Shown here: positions 1-27,850 of the stretch, piece by piece
Layout of the letters: each line of letters opens with the position of its first letter
How positions within the stretch are numbered: position 1 is the stretch's first letter
Virus record (IMG/VR): IMGVR_UViG_2531839583_000010
DNA from: a virus
Taxonomy: Duplodnaviria; Heunggongvirae; Uroviricota; Caudoviricetes
DNA length: 37,852 bases
Strand: one strand, 5' to 3'
Position numbers and translations under genes: made by a program
Notes under the pieces: generated by a model
Seen by the model: the letters and a program-made list of their open reading frames with translations, nothing else
Told to the model about the DNA's origin: nothing
The model's database searches: none

Positions 1-1053
1 TTACGGGGTAATGCCAACCGCTGCCGCCACTTTGTCGCCACTTGGCAGCGTTGCCAGAGGATTGAAACGGAGCGCCGTTTCCAGATGATCCGGTGCCAGA
101 TGTGCGTAACGCATCGTCATTTTTATATCGTGGTGTCCGAGAATTTTTTGTAAGGCCAGAATGTTTCCACCCGACATCATGAAGTGCGCCGCAAACGTAT
201 GGCGCAGAACGTGTGTGAGTTGACCGCGAGGGAGCACGATAGACGTTTTTTCCATCACGGATAAAAATTGAAAATAGCAGTCTGTGAAGAAATTGAACCC
301 ATCAAGCGCCATGATCTCTTCGTAAAGCTCTTTACTGATAGGGATGCTTCTGTTTTTCTTCCCTTTCGTTCTGACAAAGGTAATTCGGTATTTAGTCACC
401 TGTGAACGGGTAAGATTTATTGCTTCTCGCCAGCGTGCGCCTGTGCTTAAGCAGATCTTGACTACCAGTGCCAGAATTGGGTCCTGACGTTTGCAATCAG
501 CCAGCAATTCAACAATCTGTTCATGGGTAAGCCATGCCATCTCTTTTTCTGCGATGGTGAATTTTCGCATGTTCTCCAGTGGGTTCGGATACGACCATTC
601 GCCCAGGCGGGATAGTTCGCTAAAAACACTACTTAGATAGCTTTGCTCCAGGTTAACGGTGACCGGGCTTGCTCCTTTCTTCCATTTTTCGCTGAAGTAG
701 ATCTCTCCTGTCAGGCGTTTATCTCTATAGTGGGCAAACATTTTAGAGGTGAGATCGGTTGCAATGGGATTTCCCAGAGCGTCAACCATCAACAGCAATT
801 TGTCATAGACATGCTGCCCAGCCGTCAGAGATTTACCATGTAGTTTGAACCATAGCTCAACCACGTCTTTCAGTGTTCGACGATCCACTGATTCACCCAG
901 CCAGGGTTTTGCTTCGGTTTCTTCCATCGTGTGACGCTCAAAAGCCAGAGCTTCGCCTTTGGTGGCGAATTGTTTACGCACACGACGTCCACTACGTCCG
1001 GCGGGGTAACATTCGCAAAGCCATTTTCCTGTGGTGAGTTTTCGTACTGCCAT
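1..1053 (-). CDS. int: Tyrosine integrase (P2/186 family)
   Basis: 350-aa ORF; C-terminal region HVLRHTFAAHFMMSGG...HHDIKMTMRYAHL matches the tyrosine recombinase R-H-R-Y catalytic box; sits at the prophage edge. The last ~6 codons lie left of the att core. Confidence 0.9.
   Translation of the reverse strand: MAVRKLTTGKWLCECYPAGRSGRRVRKQFATKGEALAFERHTMEETEAKPWLGESVDRRTLKDVVELWFKLHGKSLTAGQHVYDKLLLMVDALGNPIATDLTSKMFAHYRDKRLTGEIYFSEKWKKGASPVTVNLEQSYLSSVFSELSRLGEWSYPNPLENMRKFTIAEKEMAWLTHEQIVELLADCKRQDPILALVVKICLSTGARWREAINLTRSQVTKYRITFVRTKGKKNRSIPISKELYEEIMALDGFNFFTDCYFQFLSVMEKTSIVLPRGQLTHVLRHTFAAHFMMSGGNILALQKILGHHDIKMTMRYAHLAPDHLETALRFNPLATLPSGDKVAAAVGITP
19..40. repeat. Putative attL core (cgctgccgccaCtttgtcgcca), inside the 3' end of int
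   Basis: 21 of 22 nt identical to 34988-35009, which lies immediately after the ogr stop; seen directly in the sequence. Confidence 0.45.
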
Positions 1054-1131: not shown

Positions 1132-1503
1132 TCATAAGTACCGATATGATTGCGGGGCCGTTATGTTATCACCTAATGAACTTAGATGAAGCGGTTGATC
1201 ATAGATTTTTAAATTGCCAATTTCTATAGCAAAGGCTTTTTCTTTGCTATGAAAATATGAGTCAAAAAATTGTTTGCTGATACCTGCGTATTGGCTTGTT
1301 TTTTCCCATACAATACTTGGCTTGTCTTCTATAACGTCTGCAATGTCAAATTCAGCAACAACTTTACCGACAGGCATTGTTGAATAAATAACCACAGATT
1401 TTACATCCGGGTTTTTGAAAAGACCTTTCCTGAATTCAAACTTCTTTGTCCCATTAAGGATCTTTTCAACAAATTCAGGTTTTATTGACAATAATACTTT
1501 CAT
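1132..1503 (-). CDS. ASCH-domain (PUA-like fold) protein, cargo gene 3 of the cI-int cassette
   Basis: 123 aa; N-terminus LLSIKPEFVEKILNGTKKFEFRK resembles the ASCH signature (LSIkPeya..Il.GkKt.E.R); overlaps the upstream gene by 29 nt. Homology is recalled, not searched. Confidence 0.6.
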   Translation of the reverse strand: MKVLLSIKPEFVEKILNGTKKFEFRKGLFKNPDVKSVVIYSTMPVGKVVAEFDIADVIEDKPSIVWEKTSQYAGISKQFFDSYFHSKEKAFAIEIGNLKIYDQPLHLSSLGDNITAPQSYRYL

Positions 1504-2554
1504 CTACAGCACCAAGTTTAATTATATCGTCAAATTGCTTATCGGTTAATTTAACAACACCCCAACGGTTTTTAGGATTCAAACCAATTTCTTTAATTAG
1601 TTTAGCACGATTTATTCTTTTAGGTAAAGCTAGATTATATGTAAAACTAATAATGTAAGGGTATCTTCTTGTTTGATAAAATTTTTTCAATTCATTTTCA
1701 GAAAATACACTGTATCGTGCACAATATTGTATGAATTCATTTTCATTATGAAAAGAATCAATATATCTAATATCTTCAACTACACATAATGACGTTGCGA
1801 CAGAACGATAGTATGCTCTGTTCTCTTCGTCACTTGTTCTGTAAATAACTAAGATGTCATGTTTTTTTATTTTTTTTACATCATACATTCTACATATATA
1901 TATTTTTCTAATGCTATTAGCATGAGATACATCCGTGATTATATCTGGAGATTCAGTGACGAGTTTTGAATCAGGAAAAAGTTTTGTATGAAATTCAGGG
2001 TGTATTGACAATAGGTATTTATTCTCATTATTTTTATTATTTATATATGGGTAATCAGAAAGTATATCACCCGTGAGGTGATTTCTATTCATCTCTCTTA
2101 CTAAAACATTTTCTATACCATTTGCGGTTTTTTTTGTGCCATGAAGAATGAATCCATAAAGTTTGAATAGTTTTATTAGATATTCATGTTTTTCAAATAC
2201 AGTAACGTAAATATCATTAACTCTTTCTTTTAAAGCATGATCAAATATTTTTTTTAAAAAACGTTGCCCTCGTAATGTTTTTTTTGTATTGAACTTAAAG
2301 GTTCCAATTTTCAAATGTTTATGATTGATAATTGATGGGGTGACATCAGTTATTTTACCGAATTCAATTTTTAAATACATAAAACCATCAATGGTATTAT
2401 CGTCATTATAAAGCACATATGCTTTTTCTTCTGGATTAAGACTTTTTCTGTTGAACCATTCAATAAAACCGTGTTCATAGTCATTCTTTAACGAATCAAA
2501 AAATGTATCGTCAAAATTTACTTGACTGAATGGAATAAGTTTTAAATTTTCCAT
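1475..2554 (-). CDS. Hypothetical two-domain protein; C-terminal half has an ASCH-like motif, N-terminal half has weak GNAT-like features
   Basis: 359-aa ORF in an AT-rich island; C-terminal segment LLSIHPEFHTKLF...ILVIYRTSDEE echoes the neighbouring ASCH start; the N-terminal RGQRFLKKIFDHAL stretch only loosely resembles GNAT motif A. Confidence 0.5.
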   Translation of the reverse strand: MENLKLIPFSQVNFDDTFFDSLKNDYEHGFIEWFNRKSLNPEEKAYVLYNDDNTIDGFMYLKIEFGKITDVTPSIINHKHLKIGTFKFNTKKTLRGQRFLKKIFDHALKERVNDIYVTVFEKHEYLIKLFKLYGFILHGTKKTANGIENVLVREMNRNHLTGDILSDYPYINNKNNENKYLLSIHPEFHTKLFPDSKLVTESPDIITDVSHANSIRKIYICRMYDVKKIKKHDILVIYRTSDEENRAYYRSVATSLCVVEDIRYIDSFHNENEFIQYCARYSVFSENELKKFYQTRRYPYIISFTYNLALPKRINRAKLIKEIGLNPKNRWGVVKLTDKQFDDIIKLGAVDESIIVNKT

Positions 2555-2581
2555 GTTGCCCCCTGTTTAATTATTGTGAGA

Positions 2582-3646
2582 TTATTTTCTATAGGTCCAA
2601 AGGTGAATAATTATATATATTACAATAGCTAAAATTGCCCCACCGATATAATATGTGCTTGTCGGTATAAATTTAAGAATAAAAGCAAAGGCAGCACCAT
2701 ATATCAAGTACGCAAAAATTTTACTGAATTTGGTTTTCGTGTTTTTAAACTTCACAACAACAGAGAAGTCATTTAGTGTTGTTTCATTATCATTAACAAT
2801 CTTCCAATGGTAAATCATAGGGTCGTGATCACCAAATGAAATACCTTTTTCGAAATATTTTGTCCATGTTTCAGACTCTAATATTCTACATCCTTTATAA
2901 CTTGAGCCAGATGCTGAACATTCATCAACAATATCTCTTATTATAAACAAATGTATTTTTAAAGGTGTGCAAGCGGCGCTCGCCAGAGTTGTAGCAATTT
3001 CTGAAGGTAGGTTTCTTTGTTCATTGATCCTAAAATCAATAATATCAGAACGCTCAATATTACTTTTGAGAAAGAGATCTTTTGGATAAAATGTTTTTAC
3101 TAAAACACCTATATCTTCATTGTTGAGTTTAACTCGAAATCTTAAATAATGTGGAGCATCCTCTGACGATAGGCAATCTTTTAGCTTGAAAACAATGAAG
3201 GTGCCATTATGTATTTTAGTTACCTTAACCCTACGATCAAGTTCGCCACCACTAAAGGTCAGATTTGTATTAACAACTAAATCACCTTTATTCGCAAGTT
3301 CTAATTTTGAATGTCTGACGTCTACTGTTTTTGTATTAATAAGATATTCATTAAAAACAGCTGTTACGAGATCTCGGCTTGACTCGAGATTTTTACTAAG
3401 ATCAGAAAAAAAACAATTTTCCTTCTCAAATGGTAAAAATATGCATATTGCACCATGATTTGCAATGGTGTCGTCATCAGGTTTTTTAAACGTAATACCA
3501 AAATCTAAATAACAAAATTTATGAGCACTTATATTCCAAAAATTTATGTGTAACTCATTAATAAAATTATTGCGTTCAGGGTTATAGGTCGAACTCGAAT
3601 TGCTCCTATAATCCCTACATCCCCAGATAGCAAAACTTTTTGACAT
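2582..3646 (-). CDS. Hypothetical protein with a large soluble N-domain and two C-terminal transmembrane helices
   Basis: 354-aa ORF; C-terminus IFAYLIYGAAFAFILKFI...YYIGGAILAIVIYIIIHLW has two hydrophobic helices; no recognised catalytic motif. Confidence 0.5.
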   Translation of the reverse strand: MSKSFAIWGCRDYRSNSSSTYNPERNNFINELHINFWNISAHKFCYLDFGITFKKPDDDTIANHGAICIFLPFEKENCFFSDLSKNLESSRDLVTAVFNEYLINTKTVDVRHSKLELANKGDLVVNTNLTFSGGELDRRVKVTKIHNGTFIVFKLKDCLSSEDAPHYLRFRVKLNNEDIGVLVKTFYPKDLFLKSNIERSDIIDFRINEQRNLPSEIATTLASAACTPLKIHLFIIRDIVDECSASGSSYKGCRILESETWTKYFEKGISFGDHDPMIYHWKIVNDNETTLNDFSVVVKFKNTKTKFSKIFAYLIYGAAFAFILKFIPTSTYYIGGAILAIVIYIIIHLWTYRK

Positions 3647-3674: not shown

Positions 3675-4328
3675 TTATACATCTGATAATACTTTTCGAT
3701 AGCATCTTGCGATGGGTTTTATATCGTCAAGCATACATTCAAAAAATGTTTGACCACTGCTAACTTTTACTCTCCCAACTGGAATTCTAACCAGATCACG
3801 AGAACTTATTTTTCCTTCTATTTCAACAATCCATTTCCCATCAATAATTTCATCAAATTTCATGTCTACCAGATAATTATCTGATAACTCAGAAAATATT
3901 GCGGGGGTAATCATATCCACCGGGAGCAAATCTTTATCAAAAATGTAAGAGGAATCACCTTGTAGCTTGCCATCTACTATTTTGTAATGTGGCAATTTTA
4001 TACCTTCTTTCGTTGCTTTAAGACGAGGAGAACCAACACCAGACACTAACCATTCGAGAGACACTCCCGTTTCTAGAGCGCACTGAATTACCCAATCAGC
4101 TGGAAAAATATCACGCATATAGCGCGTTGCCATGGTGCTCTTAGAAACACCTAAATGATCACAGAGAGCCTGACGGGTACCGAACCCATATGCTTCAACT
4201 AAACGTTCTATAGCTTTCTTACCGCCGCTATTGAAATCCACAAGTCCTCCAAAGAAATCCAAAACTCGTTGACAGATTCCAAAAGCGATCTTAAAGTTGA
4301 ACCAGAAGTGTTCTTTTGGAGCCTTCAC
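3675..4328 (-). CDS. cI: CI-type immunity repressor (phage 186 family, HTH)
   Basis: HTH region ERLVEAYGFGTRQALCDHLGVSKSTMATRY...CALETGVSLEWLVSGVG resembles the 186 CI N-domain; divergent from apl/cII as in 186. The true start may be internal (ORF is about 25 aa longer than expected). Confidence 0.7.
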   Translation of the reverse strand: MKAPKEHFWFNFKIAFGICQRVLDFFGGLVDFNSGGKKAIERLVEAYGFGTRQALCDHLGVSKSTMATRYMRDIFPADWVIQCALETGVSLEWLVSGVGSPRLKATKEGIKLPHYKIVDGKLQGDSSYIFDKDLLPVDMITPAIFSELSDNYLVDMKFDEIIDGKWIVEIEGKISSRDLVRIPVGRVKVSSGQTFFECMLDDIKPIARCYRKVLSDV

Positions 4329-10572: not shown

Positions 10573-11691
10573 ATGTATCTTTTCAAGTATTACCGTCCGG
10601 ACTTCTTCTTCGAGAAAGCTATTCGTTATAATGAATTATATTTTTCCGCTCCTGCGCAATTGAATGATCCTAATGATCTCAATATAGATTATCGTTTTGA
10701 TAATAAATTGAAATTATGAGATATTTTATTGCGTTCTCCTTGCGATAAATCCTATAAAAATTTGAGTCACATATTAGATTTGAGTAATTTGAAGATACAT
10801 AAGGGATTGAATCGTATTTTTAGAGGAAAAAAAATAAAAAGTAGCATTGAGTCATTAGATAGCCTGTTTGACTCACACGTTGATGAGATACGTAAGATCA
10901 TAAATGATGGTTTACTACCTATCAATGTGATTAATTCCGCTATTTATGGGAATATTCCTGAACCACGCCAATTTTTGGTCTCACTTTGCGAGAACAGTAT
11001 CAAAGAAAGGTTGTATAGGAAAATAGTTCCTGCAGTATTCAGTGTGTCATTTTCAGCTAATGCGTTAGATCGTATGATGTGGGCGCATTATGCTGCAGGC
11101 TTTAGTGGTTGTGTTGTGATTTATGAAACGCAGGATTTTAATATTAATGGCGTACCACATCCTGGAATGAAGTTAAGAGAAAATTTATTTTCATCAGATA
11201 AAATTAATTTTCCAGTTAAGCCAATAAAATATAGTAATCAAGCTAAAGAGGTTTCACTTCTAGACCCAAGCGCAAATGTTGCAGAGTTATTTTTAACTAA
11301 AAATAGATTTTGGAGATATGAAGCTGAATATCGAATGTTTATTCCAGAGGCAAATGCAGGAATAGGGAGTGAGCGGCATGTTCAAAGACACGTAAATCGA
11401 AATATTGGACATGTTTTTCATCATGATGCTAATGTTGTTAAAGGGATCATTTTTGGTCCTAGAATGTGTGAAATGAAAAAAGAAAGCATATGGAATTGTA
11501 TCAAGTCAAATATGGAGAATTCAAATTCAACAATATGTTATTTTTTTGACTCTGAGTTATCAGCATCAGGAAAGATTACTATTTCAAAAGGGCAACGAGC
11601 GGAAAAAATGAAAAATTTCCCTTTGTTCAGGAACAAGTTAAGTCAGACGGAAATGGCTAAAGTTTTGAAGGAAATTGGCATTACGAACTAA
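10573..11691 (+). pseudogene. DUF2971-like gene interrupted by an in-frame TGA (10717-10719)
   Basis: ATG 10573 encodes YLFKYYRPDFFFEKAIRYNELYFSAPAQLNDPND (DUF2971 N-motif as recalled); a TGA follows; the same frame continues to 11691 and contains MWAHYAAGFSGCVVIYE and RFWRYEAEYR (DUF2971 core motifs). The track ORF 10729-11691 starts at a TTG. Confidence 0.55.
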
Positions 11692-11756
11692 CCTAACAAC
11701 AGTGCATGCCTATGCTGCCTGAATTTGCATGACCGTTTGAGGATCGTTTTTGCTAA

Positions 11757-11781
11757 GGCCCGCCAGAACTGGCGGGCTTTT
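11757..11781 (+). terminator. Rho-independent terminator candidate
   Basis: ggcccgccag-aa-ctggcgggc followed by tttt; GC stem plus T-run downstream of the DUF2971-like gene. Confidence 0.6.
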
Positions 11782-11826
11782 GCGTGGATCAGGCACCTGC
11801 ATGAAAACCACTACACAAAGCGGGCA

Positions 11827-11845
11827 GGCGTGGCGGGGATACGAG
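11827..11845. other. Putative cos (cohesive end) site, ggcgtggcggggatacgag
   Basis: The first 13 nt match the recalled P2/186 cohesive end (GGCG[A/T]GGCGGGGA...); it sits in a short GC-rich island between two AT-rich cargo genes. Assigned from memory of the P2/186 cos sequences. Confidence 0.4.
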
Positions 11846-11978
11846 CGCGCGTTATGACAAATAGATGATTAGCCTGATTTATTTACAGCTGTATAAATGA
11901 TCACCTTGTAATTAGGTAAGTAATGTCTTCTATTATCATTGATTTGATAGGATTAATCTGTTTTTTGAGGATTAGAGG

Positions 11979-14315
11979 ATGATTGAAGAGGTAGTTATTG
12001 ACAAGGTAGGCTCATATAATGGCCCTACGCAGCTTTTACATGGACTTTCTAAATTTAACTATTTATATGGAGCTAATGGTGCAGGTAAAACAACTATAAG
12101 TAAAATTATTAATGACCCTGAACAATATCCAACATGTCCGATTAAATGGAAAAATAATATATCTTTAATAAGCTACGTATATAATAAAGATTTTGTTGAA
12201 AGAAATTTTAGTCAAGATAAAATTAAAGGTGTATTTACCCTTGGTAGCGATCTTAAGGAGGATGAAGAGAAACTAATATCTCTTAAAGAAGAAAAAAATA
12301 AGCTAATGGAATCTATTATAGCAAAGGAAAAGTTAATAGATGGTGGTGATAATGAATTAGGCGTTATTAAAAAAATCGAAGACCATGAAAAATCTTTTAA
12401 AGATTCATGTTGGAAGCAAAAAGTAAAACATGACAATGTGTTCTCAAAGGCTTTTGAGGGATTAAGGAATAGTAGTGAAAAATTTAAAGCCAGAGTGTTG
12501 GCTGAGTATGAAAATAATACATCAGAAGTTTGCTCAATAGCAGAGTTAATTGAGAAAGCAAAAATTGTTTTTTCTACTGAATTGACATCACATGTATCAA
12601 TTACAATTCCATCCTTCAATGGGATAGATGATATTTTGAGTAGGGAAGTTTGGAGTGAGCGTATCCTAGGGAAAAAAGACGTTAGTGTTTCAGACTTAAT
12701 TACAATGCTCAATAACAGTGATTGGGTTAAGGAGGGTTTAACATATTTCAGTAAATCTAATCCCAAGTGCCCATTCTGCCAGCAGGATGTAAATGATAAT
12801 ATATTTGATAATCTTTCATCATATTTTGATAAAACATATGAGTTAAAAAAAAGAGAAATCGATGCATTGGTTTTACAATATGAATATCAACTTAATAATA
12901 TCTTGAAGGCGATAGATGATATAAGGGCGATTAAATCTCCATTCATAAATTATGAAGTGTTTGAGGATAAGGCTAAGATAGTATTATCTGAATTAAACAA
13001 GAATTTTGAATTGGCAAAAAATAAACGCAATTTTTTAAGTGAATCAGTTCATTTTAGTGACTTAAGTGAAGTTGTTGATGATTTTATTTCTTTTTTGAAT
13101 GATTCAAATCTATTGATAGATAATAATAACAAAATACATAGTAATAGAAAGGTAGAGGCTAGTAATCTTTCTAAGCAGATATGGGCATATATCGTAAAGG
13201 TGGAGTTAAAGTCTGAAATAACTTCTTACCGTAGCAAATCTGATAAGTTTAATAGGACGTTACAAGGACTTAAATCTGGGATAGAAGAAGACAAAAAGAA
13301 GTTAATGTTAAATACTTCGGCTATTGAGGCAATTGAGTCTAATAAAACCAGTACTCTTCCAACTATTACAAAAATTAACAAGATTCTGGACTCTTATGGC
13401 TTCAAAAATTTTTACTTAAAACCCTCCGAAGATAAAAAGCATTATATGATAGTGAGAGATAGTGGAGATAATGCTCGTACAACCCTTAGTGAGGGAGAAA
13501 AGACATTTATCACTTTTTTGTACTTTTATAGCCTTGTTAGAGGGAGTGATAATGCATCAGGTGTTTTAGATGATCGTGTTGTAGTATTTGATGATCCAAT
13601 TTCAAGTTTAGATAGTGATATTCTGTTTATTGTAAGTTCGTTGATTAAAGATTTAATGGAGGATGTTCGTAAGGATGAAGGAAATATTAAGCAAATTATA
13701 TTCCTTACTCATAATATTTATTTTCATAAAGAGTTGACTTTTAATACCAAAAGATCCGGTAATCAAGCAATGAAAGAGGAGACTTTTTGGATTGTAAGGA
13801 AAAAAGGGAAGGTTTCATATCTTGAAAAGTGCGAATCAAACCCAATAAAAACGTCTTATGATTTGCTCTGGTGCGAATTGAGAAGAACAGACATTAATAA
13901 TAATACTATACAAAATACAATGCGAAGGATTTTGGAGAATTACTTTAAGATATTAGGTGGGATGGATATTAGGAAGCTTGAGTGTCATTTTTATGGTGAT
14001 GAAAAAATCATATTTAAATCTTTAGTGTCATGGATTAATGATGGTTCCCATTTTGCAGGTGATGATCTTTATATGAATTTAGATACGGAGTCTGTGCAAA
14101 AATATTTAATTGTTTTTCAGAAGATATTTGAATGTAGTGAGCATACTGCCCATTACAAAATGATGATGGGTGAGTTTTATAAACCGTTAAATGAGTCACT
14201 TCATCTACAAGATGAGTTTGATATAGATGATAGTGCGAATGATGAGTATGCTTCGTCAAAAATTGAGATAAAAGATGGAATAAACACATCTCTACATAGC
14301 AACACATATTTGTAA
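11979..14315 (+). CDS. RloC-like ABC/AAA_13-type ATPase with coiled-coil CxxC hook and C-terminal HEPN-like (R-x4-H) domain; candidate anticodon-nuclease-type defense protein
   Basis: Walker A GANGAGKTT (aa 31-39, nt 12069-12095); CPFC (aa 264-267, nt 12768-12779) inside a K/E-rich predicted coiled coil; LSEGEK signature (aa 503-508); Walker B/D-loop VVVFDDPISSLD (aa 534-545); RKLECH (aa 665-670, nt 13971-13988). AT-rich. Confidence 0.6.
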   Translation: MIEEVVIDKVGSYNGPTQLLHGLSKFNYLYGANGAGKTTISKIINDPEQYPTCPIKWKNNISLISYVYNKDFVERNFSQDKIKGVFTLGSDLKEDEEKLISLKEEKNKLMESIIAKEKLIDGGDNELGVIKKIEDHEKSFKDSCWKQKVKHDNVFSKAFEGLRNSSEKFKARVLAEYENNTSEVCSIAELIEKAKIVFSTELTSHVSITIPSFNGIDDILSREVWSERILGKKDVSVSDLITMLNNSDWVKEGLTYFSKSNPKCPFCQQDVNDNIFDNLSSYFDKTYELKKREIDALVLQYEYQLNNILKAIDDIRAIKSPFINYEVFEDKAKIVLSELNKNFELAKNKRNFLSESVHFSDLSEVVDDFISFLNDSNLLIDNNNKIHSNRKVEASNLSKQIWAYIVKVELKSEITSYRSKSDKFNRTLQGLKSGIEEDKKKLMLNTSAIEAIESNKTSTLPTITKINKILDSYGFKNFYLKPSEDKKHYMIVRDSGDNARTTLSEGEKTFITFLYFYSLVRGSDNASGVLDDRVVVFDDPISSLDSDILFIVSSLIKDLMEDVRKDEGNIKQIIFLTHNIYFHKELTFNTKRSGNQAMKEETFWIVRKKGKVSYLEKCESNPIKTSYDLLWCELRRTDINNNTIQNTMRRILENYFKILGGMDIRKLECHFYGDEKIIFKSLVSWINDGSHFAGDDLYMNLDTESVQKYLIVFQKIFECSEHTAHYKMMMGEFYKPLNESLHLQDEFDIDDSANDEYASSKIEIKDGINTSLHSNTYL

Positions 14316-24631: not shown

Positions 24632-25229
24632 TCTGCTGCCACCGGGTTCAACGCCACTGGAGCGCCGACTGGCGCAAACCTGCAGCGGGATTACTGATCT
24701 GCAGGTGCCGCTGCGTGACTTGTGGAATCCGGCAACCTGTCCGATCAGTTTCCTGCCTTATCTCGCCTGGGCGTTCTCTGTGGATCGCTGGGATGAGGGC
24801 TGGACAGAAAGCGTCAAGCGCCAGGGGGTGAAGGATGCTTTTTATATTCATCAGCATAAAGGGACCACCAGTGCCGTGCGGCGGGGGGTGGAGCCGTTCG
24901 GCTTTCTGATCCGCATTATTGAGTGGTGGCAGACCGGAGAGACACCGGGCACGTTTCGCCTGGATATCGGCGTGCAGGACCAGGGCATCACTGAAGATAC
25001 CTATCTGGAACTTGAGCGGCTGATAAGCGATGCCAAACCATGTAGCCGTCACATGATCGGCATGTCCATCAATCTGCAGACCAGCGGTCCGCATTGGGTG
25101 GGGGCCGCCAGCTATCTTGGCGAAGAAATCACGATCTATCCGTATATCAACGAAACAATTATTTCTGGCGGCACCGCGCATGAAGGCGGGGCGGTCCATG
25201 TTATTGACACAATGAGAGTGAATCCATGA
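24624..25229 (+). CDS. I: Baseplate/tail protein I (P2 gpI-like)
   Basis: 201 aa; synteny. Confidence 0.8.
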   Translation: MNSLLPPGSTPLERRLAQTCSGITDLQVPLRDLWNPATCPISFLPYLAWAFSVDRWDEGWTESVKRQGVKDAFYIHQHKGTTSAVRRGVEPFGFLIRIIEWWQTGETPGTFRLDIGVQDQGITEDTYLELERLISDAKPCSRHMIGMSINLQTSGPHWVGAASYLGEEITIYPYINETIISGGTAHEGGAVHVIDTMRVNP

Positions 25230-27331
25230 GCACAAAATTTTATACCCTGCTGACGGATATTGGCGCGGCGAAACTTGCCAGCGCCGCCGCGCTCGGTGTG
25301 CCGCTAAAAATTACCCATATGGCGGTCGGCGATGGCGGCGGAGTATTGCCAACGCCAGACTCAAAGCAGACTGCACTGGTAAATGAGAAACGCCGGGCTG
25401 CGCTGAATATGCTCTATATCGACCCACAGAACAGCAGCCAGATTATTGCTGAACAGGTGATCCCTGAAAACGAGGGCGGTTGGTGGATACGTGAAGTGGG
25501 CCTGTTTGATGAATCCGGGGCATTGATTGCCGTGGGAAACTGCCCGGAAAGCTATAAGCCGCAACTGGCTGAAGGCAGCGGGCGCACCCAGACCGTGCGC
25601 ATGGTGCTGATTACCAGCAGCACGGACAATATCACCCTGAAAATCGACCCTGCTGTAGTACTGGCAACTCGCAAGTATGTGGATGACAAAATATCAGAGC
25701 ACGAACAGTCACGACGTCACCCGGACGCCTCGCTGACCGCAAAAGGTTTTACTCAGTTAAGCAGTGCGACCAACAGTGAATCCGAAATACTGGCCGCAAC
25801 ACCGAAGGCTGTGAAGGCTGCATATGATCTTGCAGCAGGTAAAGCATCCGCCAGTCACACACACCCGTGGAATCAGATAACAGGTGTGCCTGCAGCCTCG
25901 CTGACGGTAAAAGGAATTGTGCAACTTAGTAGCGCCACTAACAGCACGTCAGAAACGCAGGCTGCCACACCAAAGGCAGTGAAGGCGGCATATGACCTTG
26001 CAGCAGGTAAGGCACCTGTCAGTCACACGCACCCGTGGAGCCAGATAACGGATGTGCCTGCAGCTTCACTGACGGTAAAAGGCACCGTGCAACTCAGTAG
26101 CGCCACCAATAGCACTTCTGAAACGCTGGCCGCAACACCGAAAGCGGTGAAGTCTGCCTATGACAATGCTGAAAAACGTCTTCAGAAAGATCAGAACGGC
26201 GCGGATATTCCTGATAAAAGATTATTCCTGCGCAATATTGGAGCAACAAATTCAACAACCATGTCTTTTAGTGGTGGTACAGGATGGTTCAGGCTGGCAA
26301 CTGTAACCATGCCACAGGCCAGTTCCGTGGTTTACATAAGTCTGATTGGTGGTGCCGGATATAATGTTAACTCCCCTATGCAGGCTGGTATATCTGAACT
26401 TGTTCTTCGTGCGGGGAATGGAAATCCAAAAGGTCTTACTGGTGCGTTATGGCGACGGACATCGGTTGGATTTACTAATTTTGCATGGGTGAATACATCC
26501 GGTGATACCTATGATGTTTATGTTGAAATAGGTAATTACGCCACAGGTGTTAATATTCAGTGGGATTATACCAGTAACGCCAGCGTAACGATTCATACAT
26601 CACCAACTTATACAGCGAATAAACCAACAGGCCTGACAGATGGAACTGTATATGTAATTTACAGTTCACATATTAAACCTACTGCTGCTGACCTTGGCTT
26701 GAGCGATGCAAGTGGATACGTGGGACGCTTGGTGAATACCCGGGTTTTCACGTCATCAGGTACGTACACCCCGACGCCAGGAACAAAACGGATCAGGGTC
26801 ACAATAACGGGCGGCGGTGGCGGAGGGGGCGGCTGCAAGGCTACATCCAATAATGAAACGTTTTTCGGTGCTGGCGGTGGGGCCGGTGGAACAATAATTT
26901 CAATAATGACCCCGACACAGAATAGTTATCCAGTCACTATCGGCGCAGGTGGGGCCGGTGGTGTTAGTGCGACGAACGGCACCAGGGGCGGGAATAGCGT
27001 ATTCGCATCGTTAATTGCTCCTGGTGGCGAAGGTGGCGGGAAAGTGGGTGTTACAAACACAAACGGCGGTAACGGAGGTGTGCCGAGTACTGGCGATATC
27101 CGCATCACTGGTGGAGATGGAGGCGACGGTCAGTCCGGAAATATCAGCGTCAGCGGTGAAGGCGGAACATCGCACTGGGGCGGCGGTGGACGTGCAGGCG
27201 CTGGCGGTGGTGTTATCGGTAAAGCATATGGTTCAGGCGGAGGTGGCGCATACGATGCCGGTTATAGCGGAACCAGTATGACGGGCGGGAAAGGCGCTTC
27301 AGGGATTTGTATTATCGAGGAGTTTGCATAA
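25226..27331 (+). CDS. H: Tail fibre protein H with internal tandem repeats and a glycine-rich C-terminal domain
   Basis: 701 aa; N-terminus MSTKFYTLLTDIGAAKLA typical of P2 H; three repeats of ...ATPKAVKAAYDLAAGKA..SHTHPW.QIT.VPAASLTVKG..QLSSATNS.SE; C-terminal 170 aa rich in GG/GGG motifs. Confidence 0.85.
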   Translation: MSTKFYTLLTDIGAAKLASAAALGVPLKITHMAVGDGGGVLPTPDSKQTALVNEKRRAALNMLYIDPQNSSQIIAEQVIPENEGGWWIREVGLFDESGALIAVGNCPESYKPQLAEGSGRTQTVRMVLITSSTDNITLKIDPAVVLATRKYVDDKISEHEQSRRHPDASLTAKGFTQLSSATNSESEILAATPKAVKAAYDLAAGKASASHTHPWNQITGVPAASLTVKGIVQLSSATNSTSETQAATPKAVKAAYDLAAGKAPVSHTHPWSQITDVPAASLTVKGTVQLSSATNSTSETLAATPKAVKSAYDNAEKRLQKDQNGADIPDKRLFLRNIGATNSTTMSFSGGTGWFRLATVTMPQASSVVYISLIGGAGYNVNSPMQAGISELVLRAGNGNPKGLTGALWRRTSVGFTNFAWVNTSGDTYDVYVEIGNYATGVNIQWDYTSNASVTIHTSPTYTANKPTGLTDGTVYVIYSSHIKPTAADLGLSDASGYVGRLVNTRVFTSSGTYTPTPGTKRIRVTITGGGGGGGGCKATSNNETFFGAGGGAGGTIISIMTPTQNSYPVTIGAGGAGGVSATNGTRGGNSVFASLIAPGGEGGGKVGVTNTNGGNGGVPSTGDIRITGGDGGDGQSGNISVSGEGGTSHWGGGGRAGAGGGVIGKAYGSGGGGAYDAGYSGTSMTGGKGASGICIIEEFA
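25727..26165 (+). repeat. Intragenic tandem repeat in H, about 2.6 copies of a 168-nt (56-aa) unit
   Basis: ASLT.KG..QLSSATNS motif recurs at aa 168, 224 and 280; the nucleotide repeats are near-identical by eye. Confidence 0.8.
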
Positions 27332-27744
27332 TGAATACGTCATATGCAGTTATTGAAAATGGGATGGTTGTGAATGTCATTGTCTGGGATGGCGAGGCTG
27401 AATTCACAGTGCCGGATAATCAGCAGCTCATTAATATTTCTGATATCAGTGAGCAGCCCGGAATCGGCTGGGTGTATTCAGACGGGGGATTTACTGCGCC
27501 ACCCACTCCGGAACGTTCTCATGATGAACTGGTAGCTGACGCTGAACAGAAAAAACAGTCGCTGTTAGACGCAGCAATGGCCAATATCAGCGTGATTCAG
27601 TTAAAGCTGCAGGCCGGGCGCAAACTGACGCAAGAGGAAACTACCCGACTTAACGTTGTGCTGGATTATATCGAGGCTGTGACGGCAACAAATACCAGCA
27701 CCGCACCTGATATTATTTGGCCTGTTTTCCCTGCAAGCAGATAA
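27331..27744 (+). CDS. G: Tail fibre assembly chaperone (P2 gpG-like)
   Basis: ATG 27331 overlaps the H stop (TAATG); 137 aa; synteny. Confidence 0.7.
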   Translation: MNTSYAVIENGMVVNVIVWDGEAEFTVPDNQQLINISDISEQPGIGWVYSDGGFTAPPTPERSHDELVADAEQKKQSLLDAAMANISVIQLKLQAGRKLTQEETTRLNVVLDYIEAVTATNTSTAPDIIWPVFPASR

Positions 27745-27756
27745 ATACCGTCATTT

Positions 27757-27774
27757 TGTGTGAATAACGGTACA
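27757..27774. promoter_or_regulatory. Candidate Ogr-dependent late promoter element TGT-N12-ACA (FI operon)
   Basis: tgtgtgaataacggtaca, about 77-94 nt upstream of the FI start codon, in the G-FI gap. Confidence 0.45.
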
Positions 27775-27850
27775 ACTGCGCTTAGCTGCTTGTCAGACAC
27801 AATCACTTCAACATAGGGCGAAGCCTAATCCAATCAGGAGGTTCGCCACT

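Follow-up and report, generated by a model that had tools for sequence, protein, structure and literature searches.

The window analysed here, a stretch of DNA 37,852 nucleotides in length, is a P2-like prophage of E. coli, with the late genes in the P2-like order portal, terminase, capsid, lysis, V, W, J, I, H, G, FI, FII, E/E', T, U, D and ogr, and with the host genes ybjL and ybjM following the late block. The tail-fibre gene H (25226..27331, plus strand; 701 aa in the list of open reading frames) lies between I and G as in P2, and its stop codon is overlapped by the ATG of G (TAATG). The G gene (27331..27744, plus strand) encodes a tail-fibre assembly chaperone of 137 aa that belongs to the Pfam family Caudo_TAP (PF02413; E = 5e-20, 72.4 bits versus 22.1). 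Between G and the sheath gene FI lies a gap of 106 nt (27745..27850), which, unlike its counterpart in P2, harbors no Z/fun-type insert; a search of this gap for a consensus promoter or an intrinsic terminator recovered neither.

H is a mosaic of at least four segments, all read on the plus strand, and its Pfam content comprises Phage_tail_fib, three copies of Phage_fiber_2 and Gly_rich_2. 1) The first segment is a P2-type N-terminal collar or baseplate-attachment domain (aa 1-150, 25226..25675; PF12571, E = 1.8e-64), which aligns with P2 H and shows 96-98% nucleotide identity to many P2-like phages. 2) The second consists of three tail-fibre repeats (aa ~168-318, 25727..26179; three stretches matching PF03406), the last of which, together with the next ~25 residues, resembles the S fibre of Mu and P1 (aa 274-344 versus Mu S, PDB 5yvq/8ju3; E = 1e-17 to 1e-20). 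3) The third is a middle shaft or domain (aa 319-496, 26180..26713) that bears no similarity to P2 H and is 92% identical at the nucleotide level to a "hypothetical protein" of the Yersinia phages vB_YpM_5/6. 4) The last is a TNF-like plus glycine-rich (TG) domain (26714..27328), with about 11-12 glycine-rich motifs, which is the putative receptor-binding tip of the fibre.

The first-pass annotation had singled out the C-terminal ~170 residues of H as dominated by glycine, and a residue count bears this out: glycine accounts for 62 of the last 175 residues (35%) as against 43 of the first 525 (8%), an excess with a binomial tail probability of 5e-24 at the background rate. The motifs that it had quoted are all present in the H frame, namely GGGGGGGGC at aa 529 (nt 26810), GAGGGAGG at aa 548, GGEGGG at aa 600, GGDGGDG at aa 629 and HWGGGGRAGAGGG at aa 650; a regular-expression count recovers 11 such motifs in the tip along with a weaker RGGNS stretch. 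The glycine codons of the region are mixed (GGC 23, GGT 22, GGA 10, GGG 7) and the longest run of G in its DNA is 5 nt, indicating that the bias is a compositional feature of the protein rather than a simple DNA repeat or slippage tract. The interval 26800-27331 that had been assigned to this region is indeed glycine-rich, but the domain begins some 80-90 nt upstream of it, at about nt 26714-26723 (aa 497-500); the β-strands that precede the first glycine run, from aa 497-500 onwards, are part of the same structural domain.

In sequence searches the region is recovered as a member of the Pfam family Gly_rich_2 (PF21722; 50.0 bits versus a gathering threshold of 24.3), with residues 510-698 of H covering profile positions 2-224 of 226, and its close homologs carry the NCBI name "glycine-rich domain-containing protein". 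It is a plain member of this family, structurally no different from the rest. An exhaustive HMMER search with the TG domain retrieved 8,204 clusters (built at 50% identity) at E≤1e-3, of which 1,360 reach E≤1e-10, and among the matches listed most end at, or a few residues before, the C-terminus of the protein. When 105 diverse members are aligned, glycine occupies every column that is invariant or nearly so. A profile made from these 105 sequences, when run against PDB with hmmsearch, recovered the fibre of cyanophage Pam3 (7yfw/7ypx; 7yfw_a, E = 4.8e-20, chain residues 57-276), with weaker matches to RemZ and Bxb1 gp33. The RemZ match covers the N-terminal ~200 residues of a bacterial protein (8gl8_D; E = 5e-4), showing that Gly_rich_2-type domains exist outside phage fibres as well.

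An AlphaFold2 model of the TG domain computed with the same alignment (pLDDT 94.7, pTM 0.88) shows short β-strands interleaved with long glycine segments, which are confidently placed even though DSSP assigns them neither helix nor strand. A Foldseek search initiated with this model placed the Pam3 fibre first (7ypx_A; E = 1.3e-9, TM-score 0.68), followed by tail-tip chains of Bxb1 (9d93) and then by the TG domains of ALK and LTK. These results bear directly on the notion that the region is a low-complexity or disordered linker, or else a reading-frame artefact of G-rich DNA, for which one could point to its very skewed composition and to the short poly-proline ORFs on the opposite strand, themselves the mirror of the GGN codons. 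The ordered and confident model, the thousands of homologs with invariant glycine positions, and the continuous ORF conserved within the P2 gene order refute this possibility, to which we accord a negligible probability.

Both the profile and the structure searches thus identify the C-terminal end of H as a TG fibre tip of the Pam3 gp24 type, a known kind whose structure was first solved in Pam3, belonging to the Gly_rich_2 family and sharing the Pam3 fibre fold. A Pfam family, a solved homolog and RefSeq naming already account for the domain. Literature searches for PF21722 or Gly_rich_2, or for "glycine-rich domain-containing protein" in conjunction with "tail fiber", returned no papers, and none were found that link P2-like fibres to TNF-like or glycine-rich tips.

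In Pam3 the corresponding protein combines a TNF-like sandwich with a glycine-rich domain, in which 12 glycine-rich motifs form a four-layer lattice; gp24 couples a conserved glycine-rich stem to a distal tip that is hypervariable, and the N-terminal β-sandwich of the chaperone gp25 holds it (PMC9608196). The two fibres differ in what the tip is mounted on: Pam3 gp24 (7YPX/7YFW) is a stubby fibre of 280 aa with an α-helical stalk only, whereas the tip of H caps a 500-aa shaft of the P2/Mu type. The other structural relatives are further removed in context. The "wing brush" gp33 and a subdomain of the tail spike gp29 of the mycobacteriophage Bxb1 (9D93) are tail-tip accessories of a siphovirus that infects actinobacteria, and not the fibre tip of a contractile tail as in H. 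The ligand-binding TG region of the ALK and LTK receptor tyrosine kinases (7LIR, 7LS0, 7NX1) belongs to metazoan cytokine receptors and shows low identity (12-22%) to the H domain, with only ~120 residues superposable; this relationship may be a very distant one.

The adhesin gp38 of T-even phages and of Salmonella phage S16 (6F45) is likewise described in the literature as a glycine-motif lattice with variable receptor-binding loops, which raises the possibility that the H tip is a fused relative of gp38. However, gp38 is a separate monomeric protein while the H domain is fused to its fibre, and the comparison with T-even tip domains proposed in the first-pass annotation did not bring the two together: no sequence match was obtained and 6F45 is absent among the listed fold matches, which argues against homology. 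We therefore regard a fused relative of gp38 as very improbable and retain the Pam3-type TG domain as the identity of the tip.

The departure of H from its P2 counterpart is evident on comparing the two directly. P2 H occupies the same gene position and has a homologous collar and fibre repeats, but in BLASTP it aligns with H solely over aa 1-318 (47% identity); the C-terminal ~380 residues are unrelated, and in P2 H a Gp34_trimer-like segment stands in place of Gly_rich_2, which it lacks. Comparison with two close E. coli prophages reveals sharp breakpoints. Up to nt 26843 the D7 prophage hardly differs from this one, without a single mismatch over 26434-26843, and identity then declines, to 82-85% across 26824-27123. 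This break lies just behind the first glycine run of the TG domain. Relative to E. coli USMARC-50748 nt 26124-26699 are unrelated, showing that the middle segment of H is exchangeable independently of the rest, and from ~26700 through the end of G identity reaches 97-100% per 100-nt window. Taken together, these breakpoints indicate that the TG domain and G constitute a unit of exchange, with further recombination inside the domain. The suggestion made at first pass that a host-range domain had been swapped is therefore well founded: the usual P2 tip has given way to the TG tip, which brought along a small chaperone gene of its own, in a clear but ordinary host-range module swap.

The G protein carries the imprint of this association. 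Its predicted structure (pLDDT 82) has five strands within aa 3-55 and, beyond a linker, two helices (64-94 and 101-119), and we accordingly divide it into a cassette-specific N-terminal β-domain (aa 1-55) and a conserved helical C-terminal domain. DNA shared with the Tfa genes of other phages is confined to the codons for aa ~76-131, i.e. the conserved Tfa C-terminal domain, and P2 G (175 aa) is similar to it over the C-terminal ~90 residues only, corresponding to this shared Tfa domain (31%). That G is short at 137 aa had been remarked upon at first pass and is confirmed; this length is normal for its subtype, in which hundreds of sequences measure 134-138 aa, and the length lost relative to P2 G sits in the small tip-specific N-terminal domain.

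To assess the linkage between the two genes we used 51 loci from IMG/VR in which the TG match is full-length and enough sequence follows it. In 50 of these a G homolog starts directly at the stop codon of the TG protein, with an identical overlap in 48, which implies that the TG domain and G move as one cassette. Across the IMG/VR loci the identity of the N-terminal 60 residues of G rises and falls with TG identity (r = 0.79), and this part of G is still detectable, at 34-47%, where TG identity drops to 44-76%. A G that is ~90% identical directly follows the TG domain in P2-like prophages, in a ~90-kb P1-like plasmid and in an invertible-segment remnant. A dedicated chaperone gene is likewise located directly downstream in Pam3, and the two-domain layout of G is that described for Pam3 gp25 and Mu Tfa; sequence and fold comparisons of G with gp25 and Mu Tfa yielded no detectable match, so that a shared chaperone mechanism is argued for by membership in Caudo_TAP and the similar two-domain layout.

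The pairing is not universal: an IMG/VR contig (L069, 3581-6928) encodes a distant TG protein of 353 aa (34% identity), and what comes next is a protein of 758 aa and no Tfa, which suggests a different, possibly branched, receptor-binding arrangement. Two further distant family members lie on contigs of 1.2-1.4 kb, too short to include neighboring genes.

Several lines of evidence relate to the function of the tip. Among 141 distant members per-column entropy is low at the glycines and high between the motifs, whereas comparison of close E. coli relatives reveals only a loose clustering of variable positions, at aa 556-566 and 580-592, that does not extend to every loop. One Klebsiella phage has a fibre of the TG kind that recognizes LPS, with host-range mutations mapping to the glycine-rich domain (PMC12671077), and in a further Klebsiella phage, MMNM, the fibre is Pam3-like and mutations of host adaptation fall in its long loops between strands (PMC11633184). 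By analogy with these systems, the TG domain of H most likely binds a surface receptor via variable loops displayed on a conserved glycine scaffold.

A different function could be envisaged for a domain that is C-terminal in most of the matches listed, namely that of an intramolecular chaperone that is cleaved after assembly rather than a receptor-binding part. There is general precedent for this, as some fibres and spikes have C-terminal autoproteolytic chaperone domains. However, Pfam finds no peptidase S74 chaperone domain in H, the fibre structure from Pam3 virions (7yfw) contains the homologous domain, and the TG domain is already linked to G, a chaperone gene in its own right. We accordingly consider a cleaved chaperone very unlikely. 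The interpretation that we favor, and hold to be highly probable, is that residues ~497-701 of H are a receptor-binding tip of the Pam3 TG type that was recombined, together with the chaperone G, onto a P2-type fibre body; the first-pass interpretation is thus supported in outline.

This interpretation can be extended to a model for the assembly and action of the fibre. [quoted passage not shown] The invariant glycines would serve as the scaffold, and the non-glycine variable loops would contact a surface receptor, such as LPS or an outer-membrane component, with this contact probably setting the host range. During folding, the short tip-specific N-terminal β-domain of G is predicted to clamp each TG module, while its conserved helical C-terminal half might aid trimerization that starts at the C-terminal end, a role also suggested for Mu Tfa and Pam3 gp25; G would leave once trimerization is complete. 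The cassette itself has recombined onto the P2-type fibre body, displacing both the P2 tip and a P2-type G.

DNA of the TG domain is present in 290 of 5,426 complete E. coli genomes (~5%), including 77 places on plasmids, and the cassette is carried by fibres of P2-like, P1-like plasmid, invertible-segment and jumbo-phage (Goslar) types. This stands in contrast to deposited phage genomes, where the whole cassette was found in just one of 50,697, the jumbo phage Goslar (67% nucleotide identity). With the TG domain as query, tblastn against deposited phages likewise detected Goslar alone, and blastn in distant mode the same single phage; the low-complexity filter of BLAST probably hides matches, and the tblastn count by itself is hence no measure of rarity. 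A P2-type collar is found upstream within the flank in only 19 of the 51 IMG/VR loci, and the distance from collar to tip ranges from ~1.4 to 2.3 kb among loci and is ~4 kb in Goslar, indicating that the fibre bodies differ.

On plasmid pMRSN124611_p1 (NZ_CP158318.1; locus L005, 1892-7002), a ~90-kb P1-like phage-plasmid, the TG tip (95% amino acid identity; G 90%) ends a fibre of ~1,480 aa adjoined by a recombinase fragment; RefSeq flags both the fibre and the Tfa as pseudogenes. Further, many E. coli proteins of 308 aa (locus L001, 5995-6108; proteins P0010-P0120) are 85-93% identical to residues 480-701 of H and bear the NCBI name "carbohydrate kinase". Their genes lie in the remnant of an invertible tail-fibre segment, with opposed Tfa genes and a recombinase fragment, in a defective prophage near yfdP/yejM. 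The dozens of close homologs so named might be taken to mean that the TG domain is an enzyme, i.e. a carbohydrate kinase or perhaps a depolymerase; we find this extremely unlikely, and what has been misnamed here is a cassette for a tail-fibre tip, a recurrent database error that deserves to be flagged. As identities of the TG domain, an enzyme, a cleaved chaperone, a disordered linker and a gp38 homolog were all rejected.

Given the different, structurally defined tip found here, the host range of P2 is not to be expected of this P2-like prophage. We tentatively propose, while according it somewhat less than an even chance, that the TG tip with its short chaperone represents a common receptor-specificity class of temperate E. 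coli phages that moves among P2-like, P1-like, Mu-type invertible and jumbo-phage fibres, possibly with a receptor distinct from the LPS-core site of P2, and a portable module for retargeting. As the glycine scaffold tolerates replacement of its loops, this compact and portable cassette could retarget P2-type particles or tailocins, and with borders as well defined as these (~nt 26700 to 27744) it lends itself to practical use in fibre engineering. The points of interest are modest, namely the clean borders, the tight pairing with a short Tfa and the spread over unrelated fibre bodies, and they leave the current understanding of fibre biology unchanged.

Beyond the tail-fibre genes, the window contains two low-GC islands. 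The first (1132..3646, minus strand; 29-32% GC) lies between the integrase (1..1053) and a CI-type repressor (3675..4328). It encodes an ASCH protein related to the PADLOC candidate PDC-M11B (E = 2e-49), a 359-aa protein related to PDC-M11A (E = 1e-133) and a 354-aa protein that has no match in Pfam or PADLOC, and is probably a spot for prophage defence cargo. The second (10729..14315, plus strand; 30-37% GC) is situated between the replication gene A and the portal gene. Its products are a PDC-S31-like/DUF2971 protein of 320 aa and an AAA_13 ATPase of 778 aa that matches the PADLOC candidate PDC-S06 (E = 2e-266), and it occupies the position that is held by tin/old in P2.
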